Source: Candidatus Krumholzibacteriia bacterium
GTDB lineage: Bacteria > Krumholzibacteriota > Krumholzibacteriia > LZORAL124-64-63
Length of the DNA: 64,000 bases
Assembly: GCA_963848505.1 (NCBI GenBank)
Contig: CAWKEB010000002.1
Span: forward strand, 845,840 to 909,839
Direction: 5' to 3'
The notes beneath the pieces were generated by a model that saw nothing but the letters and a program-made list of their open reading frames with translations, searched no databases and was not told where the DNA came from. The translations under genes were made by a program, and so were the position numbers. Shown here in pieces: positions 44,359 through 61,967 of this stretch; positions within the stretch are counted from its first letter, which is position 1, and each line of letters opens with the position of its first letter.

Positions 44359-45021
44359 CTATTTGGCCTCGACGTTGCCCATGCCCGCCACGTTGATGGT
44401 CTTCTTTTCGGGGCTGCCCCAGTAGGTGACGTTGCCCACGCCGGTGACCTGCACGTCGATGCTGGCGCTGGCGAACGCCTCGCAGTTGCCGACGCCCGAC
44501 AGCACGATGGCCACGTCCTGGGCCTGGAGCTTGCGCGCGTCGCAGTCTCCGGCCCCGGTCAGGAAGATCTGCAGGTCCTGGACCTTGCCGTCCAGCTTCA
44601 CGTCGCCGGCTCCGCGCAGGTAGAAGATCAGGCTCTTGCCGTCGAGGCCCGTGATGCCGACGTTGCCCGCGCCGTGCAGGGTGAACTCCTCGAGGGCCGC
44701 CGTGGTGATGCGCACCGTGCAATGGTCCGACGGGTTGCAGCTCTTCTTCCAGTCCAGGTCCAGGGTGCCGTCCTTGACCAGGGCTTCCAGATTGTCCCAG
44801 AGGTTGTCATCGACGGTGACCTCGACCTTGGGCGTCTTGCCGATGGCCACCTCGACGTCGAAGGCGCCGCCCAGGACGATCTTGTTGAATGTGCCGAATT
44901 CAAGGGTGCGGGTCTCCAGCTTGCCGGAGCCCTCGATGGGATCGCCGGCCTGGGCGGGAGCGGTCAATGCGATCGCCAGCAGCAGCGTGCAGGCGGCCAG
45001 GGCGTGGTTGCGGAAGGGCAT
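44359..45021 (-). CDS. DUF2807 / putative adhesin (GIN domain, beta-helical) secreted protein.
   Basis: Seen in sequence: signal MPFRNHALAACTLLLAIALTAPAQA, then repetitive beta-strand units (GAGNVGITGLD..., GAGDVKLDG..., GVGNCEAF..., GVGNVTYWG). Confidence 0.55.
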   Translation of the reverse strand: MPFRNHALAACTLLLAIALTAPAQAGDPIEGSGKLETRTLEFGTFNKIVLGGAFDVEVAIGKTPKVEVTVDDNLWDNLEALVKDGTLDLDWKKSCNPSDHCTVRITTAALEEFTLHGAGNVGITGLDGKSLIFYLRGAGDVKLDGKVQDLQIFLTGAGDCDARKLQAQDVAIVLSGVGNCEAFASASIDVQVTGVGNVTYWGSPEKKTINVAGMGNVEAK

Positions 45022-45170
45022 CGTCATCCTCCGGATCGGGTGCATCCTTTGCATCTTGGGGGTGCCGTAGAGACGCTTCCCCCGGGGGAAAGGTTTAACA
45101 CGGAAATGCCGGCCATGCTATGGTCGCCGGGCCGGGCCGCACGGGCGCCGGCGGAAGGACGACTCCCCGC

Positions 45171-46766
45171 ATGACGCGCCCGACGACCTGGATCGCCATC
45201 CTGCTGGTGCTCGGCACCTGGCCGTTGTCCTGGACCGACACGGCCCTGGGCGGCCTCTGGCCGCCGTTGGTGGCCCTGGCGGTGATCGCCGCGTCCCGCC
45301 ACGCCCTGGCCGGTCTGCTGGCCGGCGCCTTCTGCGGCGCGGTGATCCTCGCCGGCGGCGACCCCTGGCAAGCCTACCTGGCCCTGTTCCGCGACCACCT
45401 GGCGCCCAGCCTGGGCAGCAGCTGGAAGACCGGCGCAATCCTCTTCACCCTGGTGCTGGGCGGGTTCGCCGCGGTGCTGGACAAGGGCGGCGGCTTCCGC
45501 ACCCTGCTGGGACGCCTGACCGCCGGCCGCGGCGATGCCGACCGGCGCTTCCAGCTGGCGGCCGCGGGCCTGGGCCTGCTTTGCTTTTTCGACGGCCTGG
45601 CCAACAGCATGATGGTGGGAAGGGTTGGCCGCGACCTGGCCGACCGCTGCGGCGTGGCGCGGGTCAAGCTGGCCTACATCGTCGACTCCACCAGCAGCGC
45701 CGTGGCCTGCGTGGCCCTGGTCTCCACCTGGATCGCCTTTCAGCTGACAATGATCCGCGAAGGCTTCGCGCTGGCCGGGCGCGAGGTGAATCCCTACGCC
45801 GAGTTCCTGTCCTCGCTGCCCTCGAACTTCCATTGCTGGTTCACGCTGGTGCTGCTGTTCGTGTCCATCGGGCGGCGCTTCGATCCGGGTCCCATGGGAG
45901 GTTTCGTGGCCGAGGTGCGGGCCCGGGGGCCGCTCCCTCAGGCGGCTGACGCCAGGCCCGCGCCCGCGGCCTCGGCCCTGGTGCCTCTGGCCGTGCTGCT
46001 CGTGGCGTTCTTCGCCGGCTTCTACCTGCTGGGCACCGACGGCGCGCTGCTGCCGGTGACCAGGGAGAAGATCGTGGGGGCCTTCGGCGGCGACGCCGGC
46101 CCCCTGGTCATGGTGCTGGCCGGCCTGGTCGCCACCCTGGCCGCGACGGTGCTGTTTCCGGTGCCCGGCCCGCGGCGCGCGGCCCTGGCCGGGGCCGCGT
46201 TCCTGGACGGCGCCCGCACCATGCTCGGCCCGGTGGTGATCCTGGTGGCGGCCTGGATGCTGGGCAGCGTGCTGGCCGCCCTGGGCACGGCCGAGTCCAT
46301 CACCAGGGCGGCGGCGGCGCTGGACGCCGCGCCGGTGCTGCCCCTGGTCATCTTCGTGACCGGCGCGGTGGTCTCCTTCGCCACGGGCACCTCGTGGGGC
46401 ACCATGGGCATCCTCTTTCCCCTGGCCATCCCGGCGGCGGCCGGGGCCGTGGCCCACCTCGATCCGGCCGCCCAGGCCTCGTTCCTGCATGTGACCGTGG
46501 CCGCGGTCTTCAGCGGGGCCGTGTTCGGCGACCACTGCTCGCCCTTCAGCGACACCACCATCGTCTCGTCCATCTCCTGCGGGGTCGAGCCCCACGACCA
46601 CGTGCGCACCCAGATCCCGTACGCCCTGATCGCCGCGGCGGTGGCGGCGCTGGTGGGGTTCCTGCCGGCCGGATTCGGGGTGCCGGCCTGGGTGTCGCTG
46701 GTGGCCGGGACGGGGATCCTGGTGTCGCTGCCGACGGTCCTACGGCGGCTGGGCTGGACCGGCTGA
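45171..46766 (+). CDS. Na+/H+ antiporter NhaC-family membrane transporter.
   Basis: Seen in sequence: ~530 aa polytopic membrane protein with NhaC-like segments (FDGLANSMMVGRVGRDLADRCGVARVKLAYIVDSTSSAVACV). RBS ggaagga. Confidence 0.6.
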   Translation: MTRPTTWIAILLVLGTWPLSWTDTALGGLWPPLVALAVIAASRHALAGLLAGAFCGAVILAGGDPWQAYLALFRDHLAPSLGSSWKTGAILFTLVLGGFAAVLDKGGGFRTLLGRLTAGRGDADRRFQLAAAGLGLLCFFDGLANSMMVGRVGRDLADRCGVARVKLAYIVDSTSSAVACVALVSTWIAFQLTMIREGFALAGREVNPYAEFLSSLPSNFHCWFTLVLLFVSIGRRFDPGPMGGFVAEVRARGPLPQAADARPAPAASALVPLAVLLVAFFAGFYLLGTDGALLPVTREKIVGAFGGDAGPLVMVLAGLVATLAATVLFPVPGPRRAALAGAAFLDGARTMLGPVVILVAAWMLGSVLAALGTAESITRAAAALDAAPVLPLVIFVTGAVVSFATGTSWGTMGILFPLAIPAAAGAVAHLDPAAQASFLHVTVAAVFSGAVFGDHCSPFSDTTIVSSISCGVEPHDHVRTQIPYALIAAAVAALVGFLPAGFGVPAWVSLVAGTGILVSLPTVLRRLGWTG

Positions 46767-46867
46767 AGGCCTGGAAATCATACGATACAACAAATAGCCG
46801 CGGTCCCCAGCAACTCCTAGCATTCCACTAATATATTTGTCTATAGTATCTTACAGGCTTCGAATTC

Positions 46868-46885
46868 CTGTCAAAAAATTAACAA
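46868..46885 (+). promoter_or_regulatory. Candidate Rex operator CTGTCAA-AAAA-TTAACAA (2 mismatches to the TTGTTAA-N4-TTAACAA palindrome) in an AT-rich island just upstream of rex.
   Basis: Seen in sequence, combined with established knowledge of the Rex box consensus. Confidence 0.3.
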
Positions 46886-46892
46886 TAATTCC

Positions 46893-46921
46893 TTGACCCG
46901 GCTCCGGCAGCGCCGATATTT
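46893..46921 (+). promoter_or_regulatory. Sigma70-like promoter candidate: TTGACC, 16-17 bp spacer, GATATT (-10), ~60 nt upstream of rex.
   Basis: Seen in sequence. Confidence 0.3.
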
Positions 46922-46982
46922 GAGCCCGGATCCATGATGTGATCTTTTTAACGGCGCTTGCGGGCAAACGGAGGCGGGAACC

Positions 46983-47636
46983 ATGGCAAGGAACGCAGTG
47001 CTGCGGCCGCTGACGCCCAGGGCGGTGGGTCGATTGGGTGCCTATCGGCGGGTGTTGGCGGGGCTGGCCGGGCGGGGGATTGCGGCCACCCACTCGCGCG
47101 ACATCGCCGAGCAGACCGGCCTGACCTCGTCACTGGTGCGCCAGGACCTGATGCGGGTCGGCTACCGCGGCAACCCCCAGCACGGTTACGACGTGCAGCG
47201 CCTCGAGGCCGCCATCGCCGAGGCCCTCGGCGCCGAACGGCAGGTGCGGGCCGTGCTGCTGGGGGTGGGCAACCTGGGCCGGGCCATCCTGCAGTACTTC
47301 CGCACGGCCCACCCGGGCCTGGACATGGTGGCGGCGTTCGAGACGGACGTCGACCTGGTGGCCCAGCGCTGCCAGGGCGTGCCGGTGCGGCACCTGGTCG
47401 ATCTCGAATCCATCGTCAAAGAGGAGGGTGTGCGCATCGCCATCCTGGCCATGCCCGCACGCGAGGCGCAGGCGGTGGCCGATCGGCTCGTGGCCGTGGG
47501 CGTGCGCAGCCTGCTGAACTTCACCTCGGGCACGCTGCGGGTGCCGGCCGGCACCTACGTGGAGAACCATGACCTCGGACTTGCCCTGGAGCGGGTCGCC
47601 TACTTCGCCGGCCGGCAGGTGGAGGTCCTCGCATGA
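46983..47636 (+). CDS. rex: Redox-sensing transcriptional repressor Rex.
   Basis: Seen in sequence: N-terminal winged helix (HSRDIAEQTGLTSSLVRQDL) plus a Rossmann NADH-binding domain (LLGVGNLGRAIL). The stop overlaps the hndA start (ATGA). Confidence 0.9.
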   Translation: MARNAVLRPLTPRAVGRLGAYRRVLAGLAGRGIAATHSRDIAEQTGLTSSLVRQDLMRVGYRGNPQHGYDVQRLEAAIAEALGAERQVRAVLLGVGNLGRAILQYFRTAHPGLDMVAAFETDVDLVAQRCQGVPVRHLVDLESIVKEEGVRIAILAMPAREAQAVADRLVAVGVRSLLNFTSGTLRVPAGTYVENHDLGLALERVAYFAGRQVEVLA

Positions 47637-48114
47637 ACGGCCGGCCCAGCACCGTGGCCGAGATCCTGGCGGCCCACCCCGACAGCAGCCGCGAGCACCT
47701 GATCCCCCTGCTGCAGGAGGTGCAGGAAGTCCAGGGCTACGTGTCGCGCGAGGCAGTGGCGCTGCTGGGTGCCCACCTGGGCCTGCCCGCGAGCCGTGTC
47801 TACGGCGTGGCCACCTTCTACAACCAGTTCCGCTTCCAGCCCCTGGGCCGCTACCACGTGCAGGTCTGCCGCGGCACCGCCTGCCACGTCAAGGGGAGCC
47901 AGGGCGTGTTCGCCGCCATCAAGCGCTACCTGCAGGTCGAGGCCGGGCAGACCACGCGCGACGGCGTGTTCAGCCTCGAGGTCGTGGCCTGCCTCGGCGC
48001 CTGCGGCCTGGCGCCGCTGATCTGCGTCAACGGCGAGTTCCATGGCGGCGATCGACAGCGATGCGGCCGTCAGGATCCTGCGCCGCTGCCGGCGAGGAGG
48101 CCGAGACCGCATGA
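47633..48114 (+). pseudogene. HndA / NuoE-like 24-kDa [2Fe-2S] subunit of a NAD(P)-linked [FeFe]-hydrogenase. About two frameshifts near the 3' end.
   Basis: Seen in sequence: NuoE signature ...HVQVCRGTACHVKGSQ...ACLGACGLAPLICVNGEFHG. The frame then hops 2->0->1 before the stop at 48114 (ATGA overlap with the next gene). Confidence 0.6.
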
Positions 48115-50030
48115 ACACCCGGCGACGCATACCCGCCGAACTGGACGCCAGTCGCGCGAGCCGAACTGCGCCGCGAGGTGGTCACCCGTCCGGTGATCCT
48201 CGATCGGCACCGGCACCTGCGGCCTGGGCGCCGGCGCCGCCGCCGTGCTCGAGGCGGTGCGCGGCTTCCCGGTGGTCCAGCGCCACGGGGCCGGGATCGT
48301 CGAGGTCGGCTGCATCGGCCTGTGCGCCAGCGAGCCCATGCTCGACGTGCAGCTGCCGGGCCGGACGCGCCTGTGCTTCGGGCGGGTGGACCGGAGAAGG
48401 CCCGCACCATCCTGGACGCCATGCTGGGCCAGGCGGGCCTGGCCCGAGCTGCCCCTGTTCCAGTTCCCGGTCCCGGGGCTGCAGTCGTGGGAGGGCGTGC
48501 CCACCATCGGCGAGCACCCGTTCTTCGCCCCGCAGACCGCGCTGGGTGCTGCGCAACTGCGGCCTGATCGACCCGCGCAGCCTGGACGAGTACCTGGCCC
48601 GCGGCGGCTACCGCCAGTGGCTGCGGGTGCTGCGGGAGCGTGTCCCCGGCCGAGCGTCTGCGACTTGGTCGAGCGCAGCGGCCTGCGCGGCCGCGGCGGC
48701 GGCGGCTTCCCCACCGGCCGCAAGTGGCGCTTCGCCCAGCAGACGCCTGCCGAGCGCAAGTACCTGATCTGCAACGCCGACGAGGGCGACCCGGGCGCAT
48801 TCATGGACCGCGCCGTGATCGAGGGCGACCCGCACCGCCTGCTCGAGGGCATGGCCATCGCCGCCTACGCCATCGGCGCGACCAAGGCCTACGTCTACAT
48901 CCGCGCCGAGTACCCGCTGGCGATCCGCCGCCTGACGCGGGGCCATCGCCCAGGCCAGGGACTGCGGGCTGCTGGGCCGGCGACATCCTCGGACAGCGGC
49001 TTCGATCTCGACGATCGTCATCAAGAAGGGCGCCGGCGCCTTCGTCTGCGGCGAGGAGACCGCGCTGATCCACCGCATCGAGGGCCGGCGCGGCATGCCG
49101 CGGCCGCGGCCGCCGTTCCCCGCGGTCAGCGGCCTGTTCGGCAAGCCGCACGGTGATCAACAACGTCGAGACCCTGGCCAACCTGCCCGAACATCCTCGC
49201 GCATCGGCGCCGAGGCTTCGCCGCCCTGGGCACCGCCGGCAGCAAGGGCACCAAGGTCTTCGCCCTGTCGGGCAAGGTCGCGCGCACCGGCCTGGTCGAG
49301 GTGGCGATGGGCACCTCCCTGCGCGCAGATCGTCTTCGCCATCGGCGGCGGCATCCCCGGCGGCCGGACGTTCAAGGCCGTGCAGATCGGCGGTCCCTGC
49401 GGCGGCTGCATCCCGGCCAGCCACCTCGACATCCCGGTCGACTACGAGTCGCTCAAGACGCGTGGGCGCCATGATGGGCTCGGGCGGCCTGGTGGTCATG
49501 GACGAGGACAACTGCATGGTCGACGTGGCCAAGTTCTTCATGGACTTCATCCAGCGCGAGAGCTGCGGCAAGTGCATCCCCTGCCGCGAGGGCACGCGCC
49601 ACATGCTGGAGATCCTGCAGGCGATCACCCGCCATCCGCGCAGCGAGCACGACCACAGGCGCTGGAGCGCTTCCAGGGCGTGGTGAACCTGGAGGACCTG
49701 GCCGACGTGATCAAGGACACCCGCCTCTGCGGCCTGGGCAGACCGCGCCCAACCCGGTGCTCAGCACGCTGCGCTGGTTCCGCGACGAGTACGAGGCGCA
49801 CATCTTCGAGCGCCGCTGCCCGGCCGGCGTCTGCACCGAGCTGCTGAGCTACCGCATCGACGCGGCCAAGTGCAACGGCTGCGGTCGCTGCCTGCGCGAG
49901 TGCCCGGCCGACGCCATCGCCGGCGCGCCGCGGCAGCCGCACTACATCGTCCAGGAGCAAGTGCATCGCCTGCGGCACCTGCCTCGACGCCTGCAAGCCT
50001 CGACGCCGTGCTCGTCAGCTGAGGAGACGA
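48111..50030 (+). pseudogene. HndC / NuoF-like 51-kDa flavoprotein subunit (thioredoxin-like [2Fe-2S] N-terminus, NADH/FMN-binding core, C-terminal ferredoxin domains). Broken by more than 12 frameshifts.
   Basis: Seen in sequence: pieces in alternating frames (IGTGTCGLGAGAAAVLEAV; GGGFPTGRKWRFA...KYLICNADEGDPGAFMDR; [20 protein letters not shown]; [12 protein letters not shown]; [13 protein letters not shown]; [23 protein letters not shown]). All motifs are intact but are spread over three frames. Confidence 0.6.
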
Positions 50031-50051
50031 CCATGCCGACGATCGAAGTCA

Positions 50052-51780
50052 ACGGAACCGACGATCGACGCCCGCCAGGGCGAGACCCTGCTGGAGGCGC
50101 TGCGCCGGGCCGGCATCCAGGTGCCCACCCTGTGCCACTTCGAGGGTCTGCCCCCGACCGGCGCCTGCCGCCTGTGCGTGGTGGAGGTGGCGGGCCAGCG
50201 CGGCCTGGTGCCGAGCTGCTCGTACCCGGTCAGCGACGGGATGAAGGTGCAGACCCACTCGCCCGGGCCGTGCGGGCGCGCAAGACCATCGTCGAGCTGC
50301 TGCTGGCCAACCACCCCGACGACTGCCTCTACTGCGTCCGCCACGGCAACTGCGAGCCTGCAGGACCTGGCCGAGGAGCTGGGCGTGCGCTCGCGCCGGC
50401 TGCCGGGCACGCAAGCCGGCACCTGCGGCGGGACATCTCCAGCCCGGCCATCGTGCGCGATCCCGCCAAGTGCATCCTCTGCGGCGCTGCGTGCGGGTCT
50501 GCGAGGAGGTGCAGGGGGTCGGCGGCCATCGACTTCATCGGCCGCGGCAGCGGCGCGCGGGTCGGCACGGCCTTCGGCGAGGGCCTGAACGTCTCGAGCT
50601 GCGTCAACTGCGGCCAGTGCATCATGGTCTGCCCCACCGGGGCGCTGACCGAGCAGCTCGCACCTGGAGCAGGTCGAGGCCGCCCTGCGCGATCCGCGCT
50701 GACGGTCGGTGGTGCAGCACGCGCCGGCGGTCTCGGTCAGCCTGGCCGAGGAGTTCGGCCTGAAGCCGGGCCGGGACGTGGACGGCGCCGCTGAACGCGC
50801 CGCTGCGCCGCCTGGGCTTCGACCAGGGTCTTCGACACCTCGTTCACCGCCGACCTGACGATCATGGAGGAGGCCACCGAGCTGGTGCAGCGGCTGCGGG
50901 GCGGCGGCCCGCTGCCCATGTTCACCAGCTGCTCGCCCGGCTGGGTCAAGTTCGTCGAGACAGTTCTACCCCGAGCTCATCCCCAACCTGTCGACCTGCA
51001 AGAGCCCGCAGCAGATGCTGGGCGCCGTGGTCAAGACCCACTTCGCGGCGCGGCGCGGGCCTCGACCCGGCGCGGATCTTCAGCGTGGCGATCATGCCCT
51101 GCACCGCCAAGAAGTTCGAGGCCGGCCGCCCGGAGATGCTCGCAGCGGCAAGCTGCCGGACGTCGACGCGGTGCTGACCACGCGCGAGCTGGCCCGAGCT
51201 GATCCGCCGGCACGGGCTGCGACCTGGCGCGACCATCGAACCCGAGCCGGCGGACATGCCCTTCGGCGAGCGCTCGCGGCGCGGGCAAGCTCTTCGGCGC
51301 CACCGGCGGCGTGATGGAGGCGGCCCTCCGCACGGCCCACTACCTGGTCACCGGCCGCGAGCTGGCCGACCTCAAGGTCGCGGCGGTGCGCGGGCTCGAC
51401 GGGGTCAAGGAGGCCCGGGTGCAGATCGGCGACCTCGAGCTGGGCGTGGCCGTGGTCAGCGGCCTGGGCAACGCCCGCCGCCTGCTGGAGGAGATCGCGC
51501 GCCGGGCGCCGCGACCTGCACTTCATCGAGGTCATGACCTGCCCCGGCGGCTGCGTCAACGGCGGCGGCCAGCCCATCGGCGTCGACGCGCGCGGCGGTG
51601 CGCGCCCGCATGCAGGCGCTGCTACGCATCGACGCGGCCGAGACCGTGCGCACCGCCCACGGCAACCCGGCGGTGCACCAGCTCTACGCCGAGTTCCTGG
51701 GCGAACCCCTGGGCGAGCGCAGCCACGAGCTGCTGCACACGCACTATGACCCGCGCGAAGGTGCTGAGGTGAGGCCATGA
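50052..51780 (+). pseudogene. hydA: [FeFe]-hydrogenase catalytic subunit HydA/HndD (NuoG-like [2Fe-2S] N-terminus, ferredoxin domains, H-cluster domain). Densely frameshifted.
   Basis: Seen in sequence: MPTIEVNG..., [36 protein letters not shown]-cluster motifs TSCSPGW (L1), MPCTAKKFEA (L2), MTCPGGCVNGGGQP (L3). C-terminal ...LLHTHYDPREG. These lie across all three frames. Confidence 0.65.
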
Positions 51781-53797
51781 ACACCGACACCGCCCTGGTC
51801 TGCGACCATCGGCGAGCGCTGCCGCGTCTGCTACACCTGCGTGCGCGAGTGCCCGGCCAAGGCCATCCGCATCGCGGACGGCCAGGCCGAGGTCATCCCC
51901 GAGCGCTGCATCGGCTGCGGCAACTGCGTGCGCGTGTGCAGCCAGGACGCCAAGCAGGTGCTCGGCTCGCTCGACGCGGCGGCGGCCCTGCTGGCCGGGA
52001 CGGCGCCGGTGGCGGCGGCCGTCGCGCCCTAGCTTCCCGGCCGAGTTCATCGACCTGGCGCCGGAGCAGGTGGTGGGGGCGCTGCGCGCGCTGGGCTTCG
52101 CGCTGGTGCACGAGGTCGGCTTCGGCGCCGACCTGGTGGCCCGGGCCACGCGCCGGCTGCTGGACGCCGATCCCGGCGGCCAGCTGCATCGCACCACGTG
52201 CCCGGCCATCGTGACCTACGTCGAGCAGTTCCAGCCCGGCGCTGGTGGGCAGCCTGCTGCCGATCGTCTCGCCGATGGTGGCCGACGGCCCGCGCACTGC
52301 GCGCAGCTGCACGGCGCGGACCTGAAGGTCGTCTTCATCGGACCCTGCATCGCCAAGAAGGGCGAGGCGGCCGCGACCAGCGGCGCCGGCGAGATCGACG
52401 CCGTGCTGACCTTCGCCGAGCTGCGCGAGCTGCTGGCCAGGGGCGGGATCGATCCGCGGACCGTCGCGCCGGCCGGAGTTCGACCCGCCGCGGGCCGGCC
52501 TGGGCGCGGTCTTTCCGCTTTCGCCGGGGCCTGGTCCAGGCCGCCGGCATGGACGAGGACCTGACCAGCACCGCGGGTCGTCACCGCCGACGGACGCCAG
52601 GATTTTCCCCGAGGCCCTGCGAGGGATTCGCGGCCGGCGACCTCGAGGCCCACCTGCTGGACGTGCTCTGCTGCAACGGCTGCATCATGGGCGCGGGCAT
52701 GACCACCCGCGAGCCCCTGTTCCGCCGGCGCGCCGCGGTCAGCCGCTACGCCGCCAGCGGCGGGCCGAGGGCGACCCGCAGCCCTGGCACGAAGCCATGG
52801 CCCGGCTGGAGGGCCTCGACCTGGCGCGGAGCTTCGCGGCCCGCGACACGCGCATGCCGGTGCCCGGCGAGGACGACATCCGCGCGATCCTGGCCCGCAT
52901 GGGCAAGCGCACGCCGGCCGACGAGCTGAACTGCGGCGCCTGCGGCTACGACACCTGCCGCGAGCACGCCGTGGCCATCTTCGACGGGCATGGCCGAGAG
53001 CGAGATGTGCCTGCCCTACACGATCGAGCAGCTGCGGGCCACGGTCGACGGAGCTGCACGATCTCGCACGCGGAGCTGGCCACGCACCCAGGACGCGCTG
53101 ATGCACAGCGAGACGGCTGGCCAGCATGGGCCAGCTGGCCGCCGGCATCGCCCACGAGGTGAACAACCCGCTGGGCGTGGTCCTGCTCTACGCCCACCTG
53201 CTGCAGGACGAGTGCCGCGGCGACGAGCAGCTGCGGGCCGAGCTGGCCCTGATCGTCGAGCAGGCGGACCGCTGCAAGGGCATCGTCGGCGGCCTGCTGG
53301 ACTTCGCGCGCCAGAACAAGGTGGAGCTGAAACCCGTGGCCCTGGCCGATCTGGTCGAGCGCAGCCTGCAGGGCTGCGTCCTGCCCGACGGCGTGGCGGT
53401 GGCGGCGGAGCACGCCGATCCCGCGCTGTCGGCCGAGCTGGACTCGGGACAGATCGGCCAGGTGCTGGCCAACCTGCTGAGCAACGCCGCGGCGGCCATG
53501 CCCGCCGGCGGCACCATCGTCGTCAGGACCGGATCCGCGGCCGGCGACCGCGTCTGCCTGCAGGTGGTCGACACCGGCAGCGGCATCCCCGAGGCCATCC
53601 GCGCCAGGGTCTTCGAGCCCTTCTTCACCACCAAGGGCCGCGGCACGGGCACCGGTCTGGGCCTGGCCGTCAGCTACGGCATCGTCAAGATGCACCGGGG
53701 CGACCTGGTCTTCACCAGCAACGACGACCCGGCGGCCGGTCCGACCGGGACGACCTTCACCATCACGCTTCCGCGCCACCGCTGGCCGGGGCAGTGA
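51777..53797 (+). pseudogene. HydS-like putative sensory [FeFe]-hydrogenase fused to a histidine kinase: 2x[4Fe-4S] ferredoxin, a degenerate H-cluster domain, a C-terminal Cys cluster, a HisKA domain and an HATPase_c domain. The first ~1.35 kb carry about 10 frameshifts; the kinase part (53126-53797) is in one clean frame.
   Basis: Seen in sequence: CPAKAIRIADGQAEVIPERCIGCGNCVRVCSQ; H-domain-like LVHEVGFGADLVA...TTCPAIV...FIGPCIAKKGE...LDVLCCNGCIMGAG; CGACGYDTCREHA; H-box IAHEVNNPL; G-boxes GTGLGLAVS. Confidence 0.6.
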
Positions 53798-53807
53798 GGA
53801 GAATCGC

Positions 53808-54212
53808 ATGAATGCCGAAGCACGCCCCGTGGTGCTGCTGGTGGACGACGACCAGGACTTCCTGGCGCAGATGGCGCTGCGCTTCGAGCGCGAGGGCTGG
53901 CGCGTCGTGACCGCGCGCAACGAGACCGAGGCCCGGGCCCGGCTGGCCAGCCTGCGCCCCGACCTGGCGGTGCTCGACCTGATGATGGACCAGCTGGACG
54001 GTGGGTTCACCCTGGCCCACCAGATCAAGCAGATGGACGCCGCCATCCCGGTGCTGCTGGTGACCGGGGTCACCGCCGAGACCGGCCTCGCCTTCGAACG
54101 CGCCGGCGCCGGGCAGCGGAGCTGGATCAAGGCCGACGCCGTGCTGGCCAAGCCGGTGCGCTTCGAGCAGATCCGCCGCGAGCTGGACCGCCTGGGCGTG
54201 CGGCATGACTGA
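53808..54212 (+). CDS. Stand-alone response-regulator receiver (REC) protein.
   Basis: Seen in sequence: VVLLVDDDQDF...DLAVLDLMMD...AKPV. Phospho-acceptor Asp context, no output domain. Confidence 0.8.
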   Translation: MNAEARPVVLLVDDDQDFLAQMALRFEREGWRVVTARNETEARARLASLRPDLAVLDLMMDQLDGGFTLAHQIKQMDAAIPVLLVTGVTAETGLAFERAGAGQRSWIKADAVLAKPVRFEQIRRELDRLGVRHD

Positions 54213-55362
54213 GGGGCACGTCCTGCGGGTGCTGGTGGCCGACGACGAGGCGGGCATCCGCAGCGGCGTCAGCCGCGTGGTGTCCCGGTTGTCCGTCGAT
54301 CTCGACGTGTACGGCGGCCCCACGCGCTTCACGGTCGAGGAGGCGGCCGACGGCCTGGCCGCCCGTGCGCGGCTGGATGCCGGCGGCATCGACATCCTGC
54401 TGCTGGACCACTCCATGCCGGGACTGACGGGAATGGAGCTGCTGGAGCAGCTGCGGGCCGCCGGGAGCGAGACGCTGGTGATCATGATCACCGCCTACGC
54501 GTCCCTGGACATGGCCGTGCGGGCCACCAAGCAGGGCGCCTTCGATTTCCTGGGCAAGCCCTTCGCGCCCCATGAGCTGAAGGAGGTCCTGGGCAAGGCC
54601 GCCCGCCACCTGGTGGCCGACCGCGCCGCGCGCCGCCTGGCCGCCGAGCGGCACCGGGTGCGCTTCGAGTTCCTGTCGGTGCTGGCCCATGAGCTGAAGG
54701 CGCCGCTGGGGGCGGTCGAGGGCTACCTGCAGCTGCTGGACGAGGGCGTGACCGACGGCGACCCCGCGACGGTCAAGCACATCGTCGGGCGCTCGCTGGC
54801 CCGGCTCGCGGGCATGCGCAAGCTGATCTTCGACCTGCTGGACCTGACCCGCATCGAGTCGGGGGAGAAGGCGCGCCGCCTGGGGCCGGTCGATGCCGCG
54901 GCCGTGACCGCAGGCGTGGTCGAGACCTTCGCGGCCCGGGCCGCCGAGCGCGGCATCACCGTGCGCACGCAGGTGCGCGGCGATACGGCGCTGACCGGCG
55001 ATCCCGGCGAGCTGGAGATCATGCTCAACAACCTGGTTTCCAACGCCATCAAGTACAACCGGGACGAGGGCCGGGTGGAGATCGGCATCGACGGCAACGA
55101 TCGGCAGCGGCTCGTCGTCACGGTCGCCGACACGGGCATCGGCATGAGCGCCGCCGAGACGGCGCGGCTGTTCGGCGAGTTCGTGCGCATCCGCAACGAC
55201 AAGACCCGCAACATCGAGGGCAGCGGCCTGGGCCTGAGCATCCTGCGCCGGCTGGCCCGCCTCAACGGCGGCGACGTGACCGTCGCCAGCCGGGAAGGCG
55301 ACGGCACGACCTTCACCCTGAGCCTGGCCCGCGACGGCGGCCGACACCGGGAGGCGCCATGA
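54205..55362 (+). CDS. Hybrid REC-histidine kinase (N-terminal receiver, then HisKA and HATPase_c).
   Basis: Seen in sequence: RVLVADDEAGIR...ILLLDHSMPGLTG (REC), LAHELKAPL (H-box), GSGLGLSI (G2). Confidence 0.85.
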   Translation: MTEGHVLRVLVADDEAGIRSGVSRVVSRLSVDLDVYGGPTRFTVEEAADGLAARARLDAGGIDILLLDHSMPGLTGMELLEQLRAAGSETLVIMITAYASLDMAVRATKQGAFDFLGKPFAPHELKEVLGKAARHLVADRAARRLAAERHRVRFEFLSVLAHELKAPLGAVEGYLQLLDEGVTDGDPATVKHIVGRSLARLAGMRKLIFDLLDLTRIESGEKARRLGPVDAAAVTAGVVETFAARAAERGITVRTQVRGDTALTGDPGELEIMLNNLVSNAIKYNRDEGRVEIGIDGNDRQRLVVTVADTGIGMSAAETARLFGEFVRIRNDKTRNIEGSGLGLSILRRLARLNGGDVTVASREGDGTTFTLSLARDGGRHREAP

Positions 55363-56750
55363 GCATCGCCACCGGGCCCCGCATCGACGAGGCCGCCATC
55401 GCCGCGGCCCTGGCCGGCGGCGCCGCCGACGCGGCGCAGGTGCGTGCCATCCTGGCCAAGGCCCGGGACCTGGGCGGCCTGGCGCCGGCGGAGGTGGCCG
55501 CGCTCTGCGGCGTCGAGGACCCGCAGCTGCTGGACGAGATCTTCCACGCCGCCCGCGACGTCAAGGAGACCATCTACGGCCGGCGCCTGGTGCTGTTCAC
55601 GCCGCTGTACGTGTCCAACCTCTGCGCCAACGACTGCGCCTACTGCGCCTTCCGCGCCGGCAACCGCGACCTGGTGCGGCGCGCCCTGACCCGTGACGAG
55701 ATCGCTGCCGAGGTGCGCGCCCTGGTGCGCGAGGGCCACAAGCGGGTGCTGCTGGTGGCGGGCGAGGCGTATCCGGCCGCGGGCTTCGACTACGTGCTCG
55801 AGGCGATCGACACGATCTACGCGGTGCGCGAGGGCCCGGGCGAGATCCGCCGGGTCAACGTGAACGTGGCGCCCCTGGAGGTGGACGAGTTCCGCCGCCT
55901 GGCCGAGCGGCGCATCGGCACCTACCAGATCTTCCAGGAGACCTACCACCGCCCGACCTACGCGCAGGTGCACCGGCGCGGGCGCAAGGCCGACTACGAC
56001 TGGCGGCTGGGCGCCATGGACCGGGCCATGACCGCGGGCATCGAGGATGTGGGCGTGGGCGTGCTCTTCGGGCTGGCGGACTGGCGCTTCGAGCTGCTGG
56101 CCCTGCTGCAGCACGCGGCCCACCTGGAGGAGCGCTTCGGCGTCGGGCCCCACACGGTGAGCGTGCCGCGGCTGGAGCCGGCCCTGGGCTCGGAGCTGGC
56201 CGCCCATCCGCCACGGCCGGTACCGGACCTGGCCTTCCGGCGCATCGTGGCGATCCTGCGGCTGGCGGTGCCCTACACCGGCATCATCATGTCCACCCGC
56301 GAGACGGCGGCCATCCGCCGCGAGACCTTCGCCCTCGGGGTGTCGCAGATCTCCGCCGGCAGCCGCACCAACCCCGGCGGTCATACGGACGGCGACCGGG
56401 ACCACGGCAGCCAGTTCAGCCTGGGCGATCACCGCGACCTGGACGAGGTGGTGCGCGATGTGGCCGAGCTGGGCTACACGCCCTCGTTCTGCACCGGCTG
56501 CTACCGCCTGGGCCGCACCGGGCGCGACTTCATGGACCTGGCCAAGCCGGGACAGATCCGGCGCCATTGCGATCCCAACGGGCTGAGCACCTTCCTCGAG
56601 TACCTGATCGACTACGCCTCGCCGGCGACCGTGGCGGCGGGCGAGCGCGCCATCGCCGCAGCCGTCGCGGCCATGACGGGCGAGCCGCGCCGCCGGGCCG
56701 AGACCATGCTGCTCCAGGTCCGCGGCGGCGGGCGGGACGTGTTCTGCTAG
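55359..56750 (+). CDS. hydG: [FeFe]-hydrogenase maturase HydG (radical-SAM tyrosine lyase), apparently intact.
   Basis: Seen in sequence: CANDCAYCAF radical-SAM motif. 463 aa with a C-terminal CX2CX22C-type cluster (FCTGCYRLGRTGRDFMDLAKPGQIRRHC). Confidence 0.85.
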   Translation: MSIATGPRIDEAAIAAALAGGAADAAQVRAILAKARDLGGLAPAEVAALCGVEDPQLLDEIFHAARDVKETIYGRRLVLFTPLYVSNLCANDCAYCAFRAGNRDLVRRALTRDEIAAEVRALVREGHKRVLLVAGEAYPAAGFDYVLEAIDTIYAVREGPGEIRRVNVNVAPLEVDEFRRLAERRIGTYQIFQETYHRPTYAQVHRRGRKADYDWRLGAMDRAMTAGIEDVGVGVLFGLADWRFELLALLQHAAHLEERFGVGPHTVSVPRLEPALGSELAAHPPRPVPDLAFRRIVAILRLAVPYTGIIMSTRETAAIRRETFALGVSQISAGSRTNPGGHTDGDRDHGSQFSLGDHRDLDEVVRDVAELGYTPSFCTGCYRLGRTGRDFMDLAKPGQIRRHCDPNGLSTFLEYLIDYASPATVAAGERAIAAAVAAMTGEPRRRAETMLLQVRGGGRDVFC

Positions 56751-56761
56751 GAGGCAGGATC

Positions 56762-57985
56762 ATGAGCACGACAAGGGCGACCCGCGGGTTCCGGCTGCAC
56801 GTCGGCCTGGTCGGGCGCCGCAACGTGGGCAAGTCGAGCCTCGTCAATGCGCTGCTGCGCCAGGAGGTGGCCATCGTTTCGCCCACCCCGGGCACGACCA
56901 CCGACCCGGTGAGCAAGCCCATGGAACTGCAGCCCATCGGTCCGGTGCTGCTGATCGACACCGCGGGCGTGGACGACAGCGGCGAACTGGGGGCCCTGCG
57001 GGTCGAGCGCACGCGCGCGCAGCTGGATCGTTGCGACGTGGTCCTGCTGGTGGCTTCCACCGGCATCTGGGGCCGGGTCGAGGAGGAGCTGCTGGCGGAT
57101 CTGCGCCGCCGCGACCTGCCGGTGATCGTGGCCTTCAACCAGGCGGACCGGATCGAGCCCGAGCACTGGCTGGTGCAGGCCCTGCGCGCCCACGGTGCGG
57201 CGGTGGTGGTGGTCTCGGCCACGACCGGCGCGGGTCTTGACGCCCTGCGGGCGGCCATCGTCGCCGCGGCGCCCGCCGACCTGACCCGACCGGCGGCGCT
57301 GTTGGCGGACCTGGTGGGGCCGGGGGGCCTGGCGGTGCTGGTGGTGCCCATCGACAAGGAGGCGCCGGTCGGCCGTCTGATCATGCCCCAGGTCCAGGCC
57401 ATCCGCGATCTGCTGGACGGCGACGCCCACTGCCTGGTGGTCAAGGAGGACGGCCTGGCGGCGGCCCTGGCCCGGCTGCGCACGCCGCCGGACCTGGTGG
57501 TGACCGACAGCCAGGCCTTCGCCCAGGTGGCGGCCATCGTGCCGGCCGAAGTGCCGCTGACCGGATTCTCGGTGCTGATGTCCCGCCAGCGCGGCGACCT
57601 GGCCCTGCAGGCGGCCGGCGCGGCGGCCCTGGATCGCTTGCGGCCCGGCGACCGGGTGCTGATCGCCGAGGCCTGCAGCCATCATCCGGTGGAGGACGAC
57701 ATCGGGCGGGTGAAGCTGCCCCGCTGGCTGGACGAGCTGGCCGGCGGTCCCCTCGAGTTCGAGACCGTGCAGGGCCACGACTTCCCGTCCGACCTGGCGC
57801 CCTACGCCGTAGTCGTGCACTGCGGGGCCTGCACCCTGAACCGGCGCGAGATGACCGCGCGCCTGGAGCAGTGCCGCCGCGCGGGCGTGCCGGTGACCAA
57901 CTACGGCCTGGCCATCGCCCGGCGCTTCGGGGTGTTGGAGCGGGCGCTGGCGCCGTTCTCCCTGCCCGTCGGCGAGGGCTCCTGA
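56762..57985 (+). CDS. hydF: [FeFe]-hydrogenase maturation GTPase HydF, apparently intact.
   Basis: Seen in sequence: GLVGRRNVGKSSLVNALL (P-loop), DTAG, and a C-terminal CSHH...HCGAC cluster-binding motif. RBS aggagg. Confidence 0.85.
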   Translation: MSTTRATRGFRLHVGLVGRRNVGKSSLVNALLRQEVAIVSPTPGTTTDPVSKPMELQPIGPVLLIDTAGVDDSGELGALRVERTRAQLDRCDVVLLVASTGIWGRVEEELLADLRRRDLPVIVAFNQADRIEPEHWLVQALRAHGAAVVVVSATTGAGLDALRAAIVAAAPADLTRPAALLADLVGPGGLAVLVVPIDKEAPVGRLIMPQVQAIRDLLDGDAHCLVVKEDGLAAALARLRTPPDLVVTDSQAFAQVAAIVPAEVPLTGFSVLMSRQRGDLALQAAGAAALDRLRPGDRVLIAEACSHHPVEDDIGRVKLPRWLDELAGGPLEFETVQGHDFPSDLAPYAVVVHCGACTLNRREMTARLEQCRRAGVPVTNYGLAIARRFGVLERALAPFSLPVGEGS

Positions 57986-58086
57986 CGCCGGTCTCCGGCG
58001 GCTGAGGCCGATCTTTTGGGGTCCTGAACCGGTGTCTGTCAGGTTAGTATTACGCGTTGGAAATCAGTAACACCGGAGGTGCCGAA

Positions 58087-58524
58087 ATGCGTTGCGCAGG
58101 GATGTTGGTGCTGCTGCTGGGGCTCGGCCTGCCCGGTAGCGGCCTGGCCCACGGCGTGGACACGGCCGTCGGCGACAGCCGCGCCGTGGTCGTGACCGTC
58201 ACCCATGAGGACGGGTCGCCGCTCGCATTCGAGCCGTTCGAGGTCTTCGCTCCCGAGGGCAGTGCGGTCTTCGCCTCCGGCCGCACCGATCGTCTGGGTC
58301 GCGTGGTCTTCGTGCCCGACCAGGCCGGCGACTGGCGGGTCATGGTCGCCGGCGCCGACGGTCACGGTGCTGCGCTGACGGTGCCGGTGGATGCGGCCAT
58401 GCTGCCGGCGGCCGCGGGCCCGGTCGCTGCGGCCGGCAACCGGCCGTGGCAGGCGGTGACCGGGGTCGCCATCATCTTCGGCGCGTTCGGCCTGGTGGCC
58501 CTGATCCAGGCCCGGCGGCGCTGA
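58087..58524 (+). CDS. Periplasmic or membrane-anchored component of a Ni/Co uptake ECF transporter (CbiN/NikL/DUF4198-like).
   Basis: Seen in sequence: signal peptide, HGVDTAVGDSRAVVVTVTHEDGSP..., C-terminal TM helix. Directly upstream of cbiM. RBS ggaggtg. Confidence 0.5.
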   Translation: MRCAGMLVLLLGLGLPGSGLAHGVDTAVGDSRAVVVTVTHEDGSPLAFEPFEVFAPEGSAVFASGRTDRLGRVVFVPDQAGDWRVMVAGADGHGAALTVPVDAAMLPAAAGPVAAAGNRPWQAVTGVAIIFGAFGLVALIQARRR

Positions 58525-58525
58525 G

Positions 58526-59158
58526 GTGCATATCCCCGACGGCTTCATCGCTCCGCAGGTGTACGGTCCGGCCTACGGCGTGGCGGGCGTGCTGTGGGCC
58601 GTCGGCCTGCGCCGCTTGCGCCGCGTGCTCGATCCGGCGGCCGTGCCGCGCCTGGCGGTTGCGACCGCCGCCGCCTTCGCCCTGATGATGGTGACGGTGC
58701 CGCTGCCCGGCGGCACCACCGTCCACGTCTCGGGCGTGGGCATGATCGCGGCGCTGTTCGGGGTGTGGCAGGCGTTCCTGGCCCTGTCGCTGGTTTTCCT
58801 GATGCAGGCCCTGATGTTCGGCGACGGCGGCGTGACGGCATTGCCGGTCAACGCCCTGGCCATGGGGCTGGGCGGGAGCCTGGCCGCGGCCGGGATGCTG
58901 CGGCTGCTGGGCCGGCGCACCGTGGGCCTGTTCCTGGCGGGGTGGCTGGGCACGGTGGTGCCGGCGGTGATCCTGGCTTTCGTGCTGGGGCTGCAGCCGC
59001 TGCTGGCGAGGGCGGCCGACGGCACGCCGCTGTTCTTTCCCTTCGGCTGGAGCGTGACGCTGCCGGCGGTGATCATTCCGCACCTGGCCGTGGGCGTGGC
59101 CGACGGTGTGCTGACGGTGCTGGCCTGGCGCATCCTGGCGCCGCGGGAGGCCGCATGA
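58526..59158 (+). CDS. cbiM: CbiM/NikM substrate-capture (S) component of the Ni/Co ECF transporter, GTG start.
   Basis: Seen in sequence: N-terminal MHIPDGF, the hallmark of CbiM/NikM. Polytopic. Confidence 0.85.
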   Translation: MHIPDGFIAPQVYGPAYGVAGVLWAVGLRRLRRVLDPAAVPRLAVATAAAFALMMVTVPLPGGTTVHVSGVGMIAALFGVWQAFLALSLVFLMQALMFGDGGVTALPVNALAMGLGGSLAAAGMLRLLGRRTVGLFLAGWLGTVVPAVILAFVLGLQPLLARAADGTPLFFPFGWSVTLPAVIIPHLAVGVADGVLTVLAWRILAPREAA

Positions 59159-59712
59159 GGGATCGCGCGCTGCTCTTGGGGTACCTGGTCGCCGTGGTGG
59201 CCGGCACGTTGGTGCACGATCCGCGGCTGCTGGGTGCTGGCGCCGCGGTGGTGCTGGTGTCGGCCGGCCGCGGCCTGCCGCGGCTGCTGCGGCGGATCCT
59301 GCGGGCGGCGCTGCCCTTCGCGCTGGCGGTGTCGCTGGGTTACGTCGTGGCGGCGCGCGGCGACCTGCCGACCGCCGGCACCGTGCTGCTGCGCCTGAAC
59401 CTGCGGGTGCTGCTGCTGGTCGGCCTCGCCTTCCGGGTGCTGCCGGCGCTGAACCTGCAGCGGGCCGTGGGCTTCTCGGCCACCCTGCGCTTCGTGCTGG
59501 TGCTGGCCACCAGCCAGGTGTTGACCTTCAGACGATTGTTCACCGACTTCCGCCAGGCCCTGGCCGCGCGCACGCCGCGCCGGGTGGGTCTGCTGACCGC
59601 GCTGCGCCATGGTGCGGTCACCGCCGCCTGGTTCCTGCGCCGGGCCGAACACGACGCCACCGCCATGACCCAGGCCCTGGACGCACGGGGGTTCTTCCTT
59701 GATCGCGACTGA
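59155..59712 (+). CDS. cbiQ: CbiQ/NikQ transmembrane (T) component.
   Basis: Seen in sequence: hydrophobic ~185-aa protein between cbiM and the ATPase, with a conserved Arg-rich coupling helix (ALAARTPRR). Confidence 0.7.
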   Translation: MRDRALLLGYLVAVVAGTLVHDPRLLGAGAAVVLVSAGRGLPRLLRRILRAALPFALAVSLGYVVAARGDLPTAGTVLLRLNLRVLLLVGLAFRVLPALNLQRAVGFSATLRFVLVLATSQVLTFRRLFTDFRQALAARTPRRVGLLTALRHGAVTAAWFLRRAEHDATAMTQALDARGFFLDRD

Positions 59713-60475: not shown

Positions 60476-60477
60476 CC

Positions 60478-60894
60478 ATGACCGACGCCACCCGCCGCTT
60501 CACCGTCTCGCTGCCGGCCTCCCTGATGGACGAGCTGGACCGGCGCATCACCGACCAGGGCTACGACTCGCGCTCCGAGCTGGTGCGCGACCTGATCCGC
60601 GGCCAATTGGTGCGCGACGAGTGGGAGAAGATCGACGGCGAGGTGCACGGCGTGCTGACCATCTGCTACGATCATCATCGGCGCGAGCTGAAGGATCGCC
60701 TGCACGGCATCCAGCACGCCCACTACGTGCACACCCTCTGCAGCACCCACGTGCACCTGGATCACGACAACTGCCTGGAGGCCATCATCCTGCGGGGCAC
60801 GCCGGGCGAGATCGAGAAGATGGCCCTGGCCATCCGCGGCCTCAAGGGCGTGGTGTTGGCCGATCTGGTGCGGGCGGCTGTGCCGCGGGTCTAG
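60478..60894 (+). CDS. nikR: Nickel-responsive regulator NikR (ribbon-helix-helix + ACT-like metal-binding domain).
   Basis: Seen in sequence: RFTVSLPASLMDELDRRI (RHH). C-terminal His/Cys ligand set HAHYVHTLCSTHVHLDHDNC. Confidence 0.85.
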   Translation: MTDATRRFTVSLPASLMDELDRRITDQGYDSRSELVRDLIRGQLVRDEWEKIDGEVHGVLTICYDHHRRELKDRLHGIQHAHYVHTLCSTHVHLDHDNCLEAIILRGTPGEIEKMALAIRGLKGVVLADLVRAAVPRV

Positions 60895-61967
60895 CGCCGC
60901 AGCCAGCGCAAGGCGTCGCCGCGCTCGCCCCAGCCGACGGTTTCACCGATGTCGTCCGCCAAGGCGACCAGCGCGGCGCGGGGATCCTCGGTGCGCGGCT
61001 TGCCGCGGTAGAGGTCGTAGTCGCCGCGGTGGGCCGCGGGGGTGTGGTTGGGCATGACCACGTTGGCGCCCGCCAGCAGGCCGCGCCGGCGGCCGTCGCC
61101 CGCCAGGGCCTCCAGGGCCGTGGTCGCGGCGATGTTCACGTCCGGCAGCAGCAGGCGCGCGCAGGCGATCATGGCCAGGCCCAGGTCCAGCTGTCGGACC
61201 GGGTCGCAGGGCGCGTCGGCCAGGGGCGTGCCGTCGTGGGGGATGAAGGGGCCCATGCCGATCATGTCGATGTCGCGGTCGCACAGGAACAGCAGGTCGG
61301 CCGCGAGGAGGTCGATGGTCTGGCCCGGCAGGCCGATCATCACGCCGGTGCCCACCTGGTAGTCGGCCGCCCGCAGGTGGTCGAGGCAGGCCGCACGCTC
61401 CTGCCAGGTCTGGTCGTCCGGGTGCAGGGCGCGGAACAGACCCTGATCCGCGGTCTCGATGCGCAGCAGATAGCGGTGGGCGCCGGCGCCGCGCCAGCGG
61501 CGGTAGGCCGCGGGGCTCTGCTCTCCCAGCGAAAGGGTGATGCCCAGCTCGCCGCCGGTGGCGGCGTGGACCGCGGTCAGCACCTCGGCCACGAACTCGA
61601 CGAACGCGGGGTCGCGGCGCTCGCCGGCCTGCAGCACGAGGGAGCCGTAGCCGGCGGCGTGGATCTCGGTGGCGGCGGCGACGATCTCCGCCAGGGAGAG
61701 CTCGTAGCGCTCGACGCTGCGGTTGTCGCGGCGGATGCCGCAGTAGCGGCAGTTCCGGACGCAGTGATTGCTGAACTCGATCAGCCCGCGGGGGCGGATG
61801 ATCGCACCGACGCCGGCGCCCTTCACGGCGTAGGCGGCGGCGTGCAGGGCCGCGCGGTCGGCCGGCAGGTCGGCGGCCAACAGCCGGGTCCACTCGGCAC
61901 GGCCGAGGGCCTTGGGGTTGGCGCGGGCGTGGGCCAGCAGGGCTGGGAATGGCGGCGTGCTGGGCAT
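60891..61967 (-). CDS. hydE: [FeFe]-hydrogenase maturase HydE (radical SAM, biotin-synthase-like), apparently intact.
   Basis: Seen in sequence: CVRNCRYC radical-SAM motif, 358 aa. BioB/HydE-like layout with a conserved Cys-containing C-terminal region (CARLLLPD). Confidence 0.75.
   Translation of the reverse strand: MPSTPPFPALLAHARANPKALGRAEWTRLLAADLPADRAALHAAAYAVKGAGVGAIIRPRGLIEFSNHCVRNCRYCGIRRDNRSVERYELSLAEIVAAATEIHAAGYGSLVLQAGERRDPAFVEFVAEVLTAVHAATGGELGITLSLGEQSPAAYRRWRGAGAHRYLLRIETADQGLFRALHPDDQTWQERAACLDHLRAADYQVGTGVMIGLPGQTIDLLAADLLFLCDRDIDMIGMGPFIPHDGTPLADAPCDPVRQLDLGLAMIACARLLLPDVNIAATTALEALAGDGRRRGLLAGANVVMPNHTPAAHRGDYDLYRGKPRTEDPRAALVALADDIGETVGWGERGDALRWLRR

Follow-up and report, generated by a model that had tools for sequence, protein, structure and literature searches.

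A 64,000-nucleotide stretch of contig CAWKEB010000002.1 (assembly GCA_963848505.1, Candidatus Krumholzibacteriia bacterium; hereafter the window) contains an [FeFe] hydrogenase (hnd) operon whose genes hydC, hydB, hydA and hydS are broken by one-base insertions and deletions (indels). From comparison with independent assemblies of the locus and with homologous operons of other phyla, we consider it very probable that these frameshifts are a computational artefact, generated by a chimeric consensus or by polishing in the metagenome-derived 1.04-Mb contig. The frameshifts are real in the deposited sequence and confined to the 48-54 kb tract of the window; the damage is almost certainly not a biological feature. 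A preliminary description of this DNA, made from the sequence alone, had placed about 40 frameshifts at 47,950-53,130. Their presence and location were borne out, but the count was too low: there are 69 indels relative to the closest full-length intact relative and ~48 net frame changes.

The disruption is evident without any reference. Pfam domains of the NuoE-like, NuoF-like, HydA and HydS proteins are scattered over short open reading frames (ORFs) in all three frames between 48 and 53 kb, as judged from the ORF listing and Pfam. A reference-free tracker of the codon phase of third-position G+C (GC3) recorded 8, 10 and 5 switches per 2 kb in 48-54 kb and 0-4 elsewhere in the 64 kb. The sole other 2-kb bin with somewhat raised phase switching (34,001-36,000, 4 switches) holds several short minus-strand genes. 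Independent assemblies of the locus were retrieved by exact-protein look-up of Rex and its cluster-mates, and the closest full-length intact relative was L086, a 33-kb short-read metagenome contig with ~91% nucleotide identity to the window over 20 kb; its operon is wholly intact, encoding proteins of 217, 159, 631, 573, 668, 134, 385 and 464 amino acids (aa). Against L086, we counted 69 one-base indels in the window, 60 of them insertions and 9 deletions, which extend from 48,051 to 53,113 at a mean spacing of 74 bp (standard deviation, 69). The same indel positions were found with L001, L084, L085 and L002 as references (L001, L084 and L085 are 98%, 91% and 86% identical to the window, respectively, and the operon is intact in L084 and L085 as well). 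A frameshift-aware protein-to-DNA alignment yielded the ~48 net frame changes given above. In 12 kb of aligned flanks, indels versus L086 are either intergenic or multiples of three, and the HydG, HydE and HydF maturases match their family models, in agreement with the clean flanks and intact maturase genes noted previously.

Correcting the sequence by deleting inserted bases and padding deletions produced ORFs of 159, 631, 573 and 668 aa, colinear with L086. Full-length ORFs after correction had been proposed as the sign of an artefact. Three of the genes are free of stops, and the single apparent stop in hydS is an effect of gap placement, so that the reported absence of nonsense substitutions holds. 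The frameshifted ORF products, P0126, P0148 and P0149 among them, are present in the public protein collection (NCBI, ENA) on a contig of 1,038,962 bp and were found nowhere else in that collection. Contrary to the earlier supposition, the damage is not limited to indels. Over 47,954-53,645, ~4% of bases also differ by substitution from those of short-read contigs that match the window perfectly in their flanks, and the indel:substitution ratio is ~1:3.

Among these short-read contigs, L001 (4,776 bp, run ERR4010628) shows no difference from the window over 44,770-47,953 (3,184 bp); from 47,954 on, the two differ by 69 mismatches and 26 one-base indels. At the other end of the tract, indel differences of L002 and L003 from the window end at 53,112 and mismatches at 53,645, after which both are identical to it over 53,646-54,680 (~1 kb). 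The native-flank contigs span 47,954-49,563 (L001) and 52,668-53,645 (L002/L003) of the tract, or ~44%. Wherever they cover it, its genes are intact, namely hydC, hydB (at least 479 aa) and the C-terminal part of hydS; in L002, the latter comprises 374 intact aa of the sensor kinase. An intact allele is thus present, as far as the coverage goes, in the population that shares the flanks base for base, and L001, L002 and L003 most likely show the native sequence exactly or nearly so. Since divergence is zero in ~4.2 kb of flank, decay in place is excluded, and the earlier preference for a localised consensus or assembly error over decay is upheld by these contigs.

Several distinct relatives of the locus (L084, L085, L086 and L087-L091), at 86-91% nucleotide identity, are spread over the samples, with L086 and L090 sharing ENA assembly ERZ27258568. 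Short-read contigs of the locus are mostly short (1.2-4.8 kb). The co-occurrence of relatives and the short contigs suggest high microdiversity around the operon. A scan of genome contigs for close relatives found none, the best match having 70% aa identity. The exact ClpB sequence, considered as an internal control for cross-mapping, was absent from the collection and hence had no native reference for comparison, and a literature search on the run accessions returned no paper.

If the tract were a simple accumulation of errors, its substitutions should have no preferred direction. We compared them with cross-phylum orthologue sets of hydB, hydA and hydS from 55-72 genomes of other phyla, retrieved via the intact L001 protein and synteny. 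Among 77 hydB mismatches to L001, 60 were to the base commoner among 72 distant orthologues and 16 to the rarer one. The C-terminal part of hydS behaved in the same way, with 26 of 31 mismatches to L002 toward the commoner family base and 3 in the opposite direction; a natural control, L001 versus L086, split 38:39. At third codon positions, 25 of 34 changes were toward the family base. Overall, ~80-90% of mismatches to the identical-flank contigs lead to the base commonest in distant homologues. Consider columns in which L086 lacks a base shared by at least 90% of the family: the window carries that base in 57-65% of them, but L001 in only 2 of 28 and L084 in 3 of 31 (7-10%). Substitution thus follows family conservation in a dose-response manner.

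The encoded proteins tell the same story. In HydA, the window departs from a residue common to L084, L085 and L086 at 42 sites, mostly by adopting the dominant residue of the wider family; mean family frequency at these sites is 0.55 for the window residue and 0.15 for that of the relatives, and several of the changes need two base changes in one codon. Only 1 of the 65 HydA differences from L086 falls on an invariant column, versus 22.9 expected. Because the window sequence itself had served as query for the first HydA family, a possible source of bias, the test was repeated with the L001/synteny orthologues. In the repeat, family frequencies for hydB, hydA and hydS were 0.43, 0.44 and 0.34 for the window residues and 0.19, 0.13 and 0.13 for the L086 residues; natural pairs were symmetric.

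The synonymous distance (dS) of hydA to L086, 0.11, is the same as that between L084 and L086, while the non-synonymous distance is three to four times higher (0.071 versus 0.020). For the corrected genes, the ratio of non-synonymous to synonymous change (dN/dS) relative to L086 is 0.38-0.63, compared with 0.19-0.29 among intact relatives. An ordinary dS combined with a dN raised toward the family fits no tree-like history. A natural early-branching allele was ruled out, given that dS to L086 is just 0.11 while 42 HydA residues revert to the family state. Window-specific changes include 16 transitions and 38 transversions, with 18 G-to-C against 7 C-to-G changes and a drift to common codons. 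Some are arranged in codon-level patches; at 49,329-49,355, for example, GTG is replaced by ATC three times.

We turn to the indels. Fifty of the 60 inserted bases are singletons, compared with 57% of background bases, a distribution that rules out homopolymer-linked error. No common motif or slippery site, as needed for programmed frameshifting, was found at the insertions. In hydB and hydA, indels fall in less conserved codons: mean family conservation at indel codons is 0.51 in hydB, compared with 0.75 ± 0.06 for random codons (P = 5e-5), and 0.56 in hydA, compared with 0.75 (P = 6e-4). The retention of motifs reported in the preliminary description therefore has a statistical counterpart in these two genes, though not in hydS.

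The inserted bases are themselves informative. For 43 of the 57 in-gene insertions, the extra base is a common one (at least 30% frequency in the family) at an adjacent column where L086 differs, versus 11.3 ± 3.0 for random placement. In this test of the insertions, L086 stands in for the native sequence, being the sole intact reference over the whole tract. At 48,656, for instance, L086 reads GAG CTG TGC, the family majority GAG GTC TGC and the window GAG C GTC TGC; at 49,144, L086 reads GGC TGC CCC, the family GGC AAG CCG and the window GGC AAG CCG C; at 48,997, the string in the window is that of the family majority, GACAGCGGCTTC. An alternative in which insertions are doubled natural synonymous polymorphisms (26 versus 17.6 expected; P = 0.018) was superseded by the stronger family-base test. 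The idea that indels occupy positions of variable length in the family was unsupported (4 of 24, 1 of 24 and 0 of 18), and proximity to nucleotide sites variable among close relatives was only marginally enriched (best P = 0.02).

Because inserted bases match adjacent family bases, substitutions and insertions can be viewed as outcomes of one process, the partial replacement of native by foreign bases. The catalytic motifs would be spared because native and foreign sequence agree there and nothing is left to replace. Motif retention is then a by-product of the artefact and provides no evidence on selection.

The position of the tract is consistent with this notion. L086 was aligned to 80 cross-phylum hnd loci by blastn and megablast. 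Alignment depth is ~0 in the antiporter and rex genes, jumps within hydC, reaches 40-77 loci per base over hydB and hydA, takes intermediate values in hydS, and becomes low again in the genes of the response regulator, the second kinase and HydG. The damaged tract thus lies inside the sole block of the locus that is alignable across phyla, and 70 of the 80 loci contain exact seeds of at least 16 bases. Hence alignment of foreign long reads or of homologous genomes is plausible in this block but not in its surroundings.

We propose that bases characteristic of heterologous hydrogenase operons displaced part of the native sequence over 47,954-53,645. Where a foreign base took the place of the native one, a substitution toward the family consensus would result; where both were retained side by side, a +1 insertion; and where both were dropped, a -1 deletion, which is how we would read the 9 deletions. 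Sites at which native and foreign sequences agree, such as the catalytic motifs, would stay unchanged. Two steps are candidates. Long reads of other, unassembled hnd-bearing community members may have been recruited during consensus or polishing, outvoting native reads where they agreed with each other. Alternatively, polishing may have been guided by homologous genomes, and paired or unpaired edits could in principle give substitutions, +1 and -1 changes. We infer the software step responsible; what was observed is the directionality of change with its dose-response, the doubling of bases, the sparing of conserved positions, native alleles that are intact wherever covered, and the overlap of the tract with the cross-phylum block.

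Several points weigh against this proposal. The artefact is deduced from comparison and was not observed in reads. Contigs with identical flanks span only the two segments given above, and the middle of the tract was compared with relatives of 86-91% identity only. Indels in hydS show no avoidance of conserved codons (P = 0.42). No single donor was found; the best of 72 loci accounts for 64% of window-specific sites and the family majority for 68%, which rules out a single donor genome and fits a mixture of many homologues. Relatives of ~90% identity are syntenic through the flanks too, so cross-mapping of close strains would not stop at the tract, and distant homologues that align only in the operon are needed. 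We also list here scans of JGI metagenomes with a 35-base tract string and a 42-base flank string, which found neither and have no bearing either way.

Random residual errors from long reads of low coverage or without polishing, or the closing of a gap with a raw read, in a strain-variable region, would account for the sharp boundaries and perfect flanks, the Poisson-like spacing of the indels, the excess of insertions over deletions and a transition:transversion ratio (16:38) near the random 1:2. Such errors should, however, ignore conservation, yet HydA differences are nearly absent from invariant columns (1 of 65) and indels shun conserved codons. Nor would they send ~80-90% of mismatches toward the family consensus, a directionality that persisted with two reference sets, or make 43 of 57 inserted bases match an adjacent family base. 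Errors of nanopore, 454 and Ion Torrent sequencing are expected in homopolymers, whereas 50 of the 60 inserted bases lie outside them. The last 530 bp of the altered tract (53,114-53,645) also count against random error, with 7 substitutions and no indel versus L002/L003. At the mean density of the tract, ~7-8 indels would be expected there if indels were independent of substitutions, and the low substitution density (1.3%) may lie behind the missing indels. We regard random error as very unlikely, and the low-coverage long-read noise invoked in the preliminary description is not what the singleton insertions suggest; substitutions and insertions alike lean toward the consensus of distant homologues.

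Genuine pseudogenisation, whether by decay in place or by import of a long-dead allele through recombination, has in its favour the frameshifts of the deposited record and the raised dN/dS. Against it, the absence of divergence from L001 and L003 in the flanks leaves no time for decay in place. Bacterial pseudogenes have a deletion-biased, repeat-associated indel spectrum, but here 60 insertions face 9 deletions, all of one base and outside repeats. An indel:substitution ratio of ~1:3, the lack of nonsense codons and the intact state of the maturases, the regulators and the sensor-kinase end are likewise at odds with decay; neutral decay would neither move changes toward the family consensus nor avoid invariant sites. 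Very recent silencing of the [FeFe] hydrogenase is unsupported, and we consider pseudogenisation highly improbable. The codon-level patches (e.g., 49,329-49,355) and the changes toward family-typical residues could also be reconciled with a biological mosaic, built by many short gene-conversion or homeologous recombination events from a divergent paralogue or foreign hnd operon. Such an origin calls for considerably more than 100 patches alternating within 5.7 kb, between sequences that are ~30% divergent; no single donor fits, no second hnd copy was found in the 64-kb window, and the retention of both alleles side by side as +1 insertions is left unexplained, as we know of no recombination mechanism with such an outcome. 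The chance of a mosaic is accordingly very slim. The abrupt switch from 100% identity to consensus-like sequence, the drift to common codons with its G-to-C bias (18 versus 7) and the indels at low-information positions would also be expected of a synthetic tract, generated by a model or profile or imputed, and set between real flanks. The products P0126, P0148 and P0149 are public, on the 1,038,962-bp contig, and therefore the tract belongs to the deposited record and was not added to the window; a synthetic origin is hardly credible. It is also extremely doubtful that the tract physically exists in a living strain, as a mosaic of native and foreign codons with ~70 extra bases that arose by mutagenic homeologous recombination or is functional through base removal or bypass. 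The avoidance of conserved positions is the sole hint of retained selection under such a reading.

Taken at face value, the record describes a lineage whose [FeFe] hydrogenase has just been lost while its HydE, HydF and HydG and its H2-sensing regulatory module are intact, which is almost certainly false. Metabolic reconstructions or pseudogene surveys on this genome would inherit the error. The signature of the artefact, consisting of perfect flanks, family-directed substitutions, doubled-base insertions and spared motifs, can be recognised without reads and may serve as a check on assembly quality; other metagenome genomes with long contigs could be screened for tracts corrupted in a similar way by means of the doubled-base and family-direction tests. 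Preserved motifs in broken frames are best taken as a mark of such an artefact, not of recent silencing.

The window has a G+C content of ~70%. On the plus strand, the order of genes is rex, hydC, hydB, hydA, hydS-histidine kinase, response regulator, second kinase, hydG and hydF; the coordinates are listed in the table.

Table. Coordinates of the damaged tract and of the genes of the hydrogenase locus in the window
Feature	Position	Strand	Evidence or remark
Altered tract, all differences from identical-flank short-read contigs	47954..53645		Substitutions and indels
Indel tract, nested in altered tract	48051..53113		60 one-base insertions, 9 one-base deletions
rex, redox-sensing repressor, intact	46983..47636	+	NCBIfam Rex models passed; upstream of operon, outside damaged tract
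hydC, NuoE-like 2Fe-2S subunit, 159 aa corrected	47633..48114	+	Pfam PF01257
hydB, NuoF-like FMN/NADH subunit with C-terminal ferredoxin domains, 631 aa corrected	48111..50022	+	Pfam PF01512, PF10589 on fragments
hydA, catalytic [FeFe] hydrogenase subunit, 573 aa corrected	50033..51772	+	NCBIfam NF040763, corrected protein
hydS-like sensory [FeFe] hydrogenase domain fused to histidine kinase, 668 aa corrected	51777..53797	+	Pfam Fer4, Fe_hyd_lg_C, FeS (PF04060), HisKA, HATPase_c
Response regulator, intact	53808..54212	+	Pfam Response_reg; exact protein in Logan short-read contigs
Hybrid response-regulator/histidine kinase, intact	54205..55362	+	No indels vs L086
hydG maturase, intact	55359..56750	+	TIGR03955, 491.7 bits vs cut-off 312
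hydF maturase, intact	56762..57985	+	Pfam HydF_dimer, HydF_tetramer, MMR_HSR1; start inferred from L086
hydE maturase, intact	60891..61967	-	TIGR03956, 293.9 bits vs cut-off 254.6

The exact Rex protein is present in at least 4 independent short-read assemblies. The hydC gene has 2 one-base insertions near its 3' end, at 48,051 and 48,095, and is intact (159 aa) in L001, L086 and L090. There are 20 insertions and 4 deletions in hydB, which is intact in L086 and, over at least 479 aa, in L001; 21 insertions and 3 deletions in hydA, which is intact (573 aa) in L084, L085 and L086; and 16 insertions and 2 deletions in hydS, the last at 53,113, so that its kinase end is without indels. The hydF gene shows no indels versus L086 up to 57,684. 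Corrected HydA scores 793.9 bits against NCBIfam NF040763 (cut-off 765), a pass that holds for the indel-corrected sequence only, the deposited DNA coding for HydA fragments only. The locus also encodes the partners of a group A6 HydA, namely NuoE-like and NuoF-like subunits and the three maturases HydE, HydF and HydG. The sensory-hydrogenase architecture (Fe_hyd_lg_C, PF04060, HisKA and HATPase_c) is found in the intact 668-aa orthologue of L086 and on the window fragments. The same gene order occurs in Planctomycetota, Hydrogenedentota and other phyla. By its predicted products, the underlying operon belongs to a familiar type: an NADH-dependent [FeFe] hydrogenase of the HydABC type, linked to Rex and accompanied by a HydS-type sensor, a two-component module and three maturases.

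Two separate regulatory inputs are predicted at this one hydrogenase operon, an H2 sensor (51,777-55,362) and the upstream redox repressor Rex, and the sensor/regulator arrangement recurs in distant phyla (e.g., L005). Genes for ABC-transporter ATPases and a 4Fe-4S dicluster protein (PF17179) lie at 58,000-60,500 and 62,375-63,412, between hydF and hydE and past hydE; hydE stands apart from hydG and hydF because these genes intervene. The public product of the Na+/H+ antiporter gene (45,120-46,766) is 548 aa on the 1.04-Mb contig and 531 aa in four other assemblies, which looks like a choice of start codon, not a sequence difference. Unrelated to the hydrogenase damage, two very large secreted-type proteins of 1,212 and 1,503 aa are encoded at 170-8,815; the former has DMFA2_C (the C-terminal domain of the N,N-dimethylformamidase beta subunit), DUF4082 and Ig-like domains, and the latter fn3, cohesin and FlgD-Ig domains.

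Among known processes, the proposed artefact comes closest to consensus or polishing faults of metagenome assemblies, whether a chimeric consensus of conserved genes built from cross-mapped reads or false corrections made by polishers. It resembles these in its local damage with perfect flanks, confined to the block alignable to foreign sequence, and in edits that follow the homologue majority. One class of such tools is homology-guided polishing, as by Homopolish, in which a draft is edited according to aligned related genomes. From RefSeq homologues in alignment, the Homopolish classifier gives "insert A/C/G/T" or "delete" as its output (PMC8011154), and an insertion edit applied alone could give a doubled base. 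Homopolish is, however, stated to leave mismatches uncorrected (PMC8011154), whereas the tract has many substitutions, which would need paired insert-plus-delete edits or another process. A limited literature search found no published description of exactly such a signature. Pseudogene clusters formed by reductive decay share with the tract many frame disruptions in adjacent genes. They are unlike it in that the lesions of the window are insertion-biased, of one base, outside repeats, homologue-directed and absent from conserved positions, and in that the neighbouring DNA has zero divergence from short-read contigs with intact genes.

The enzyme itself is like the trimeric, electron-bifurcating-type [FeFe] hydrogenases of the HydABC type (NCBIfam "group A6"), of which Thermotoga maritima HydABC and Desulfovibrio fructosovorans Hnd are studied examples. 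It shares with them the order NuoE-like, NuoF-like, HydA, a corrected HydA that passes NF040763, the H-cluster motifs MPCTAKKFE and MTCPGGCVNGGGQP, and hydE, hydF and hydG nearby. It differs in that none of the three genes of the window is translatable as deposited and in that its operon is without an HndB-like fourth subunit. The first H-cluster motif of clostridial-type enzymes is TSCCP, whereas that of the window hydA (50,900-50,925) is TSCSPGW, with Ser for the second Cys. L086 has the same motif, in columns with at least 98% conservation across 121 aligned sequences, which marks it as native to the subgroup and not as damage. The sensor, which we take to be a sensory [FeFe] hydrogenase (HydS, group C) of the histidine-kinase-linked type, resembles that group in its N-terminal 4Fe-4S, H-cluster, additional FeS (PF04060), HisKA and HATPase_c domains, followed by a response regulator and a second kinase. 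It is unlike that group in that two thirds of hydS are frameshifted in the deposit and in that Pfam detected no PAS domain in the window sensor, whose sensory function is predicted.

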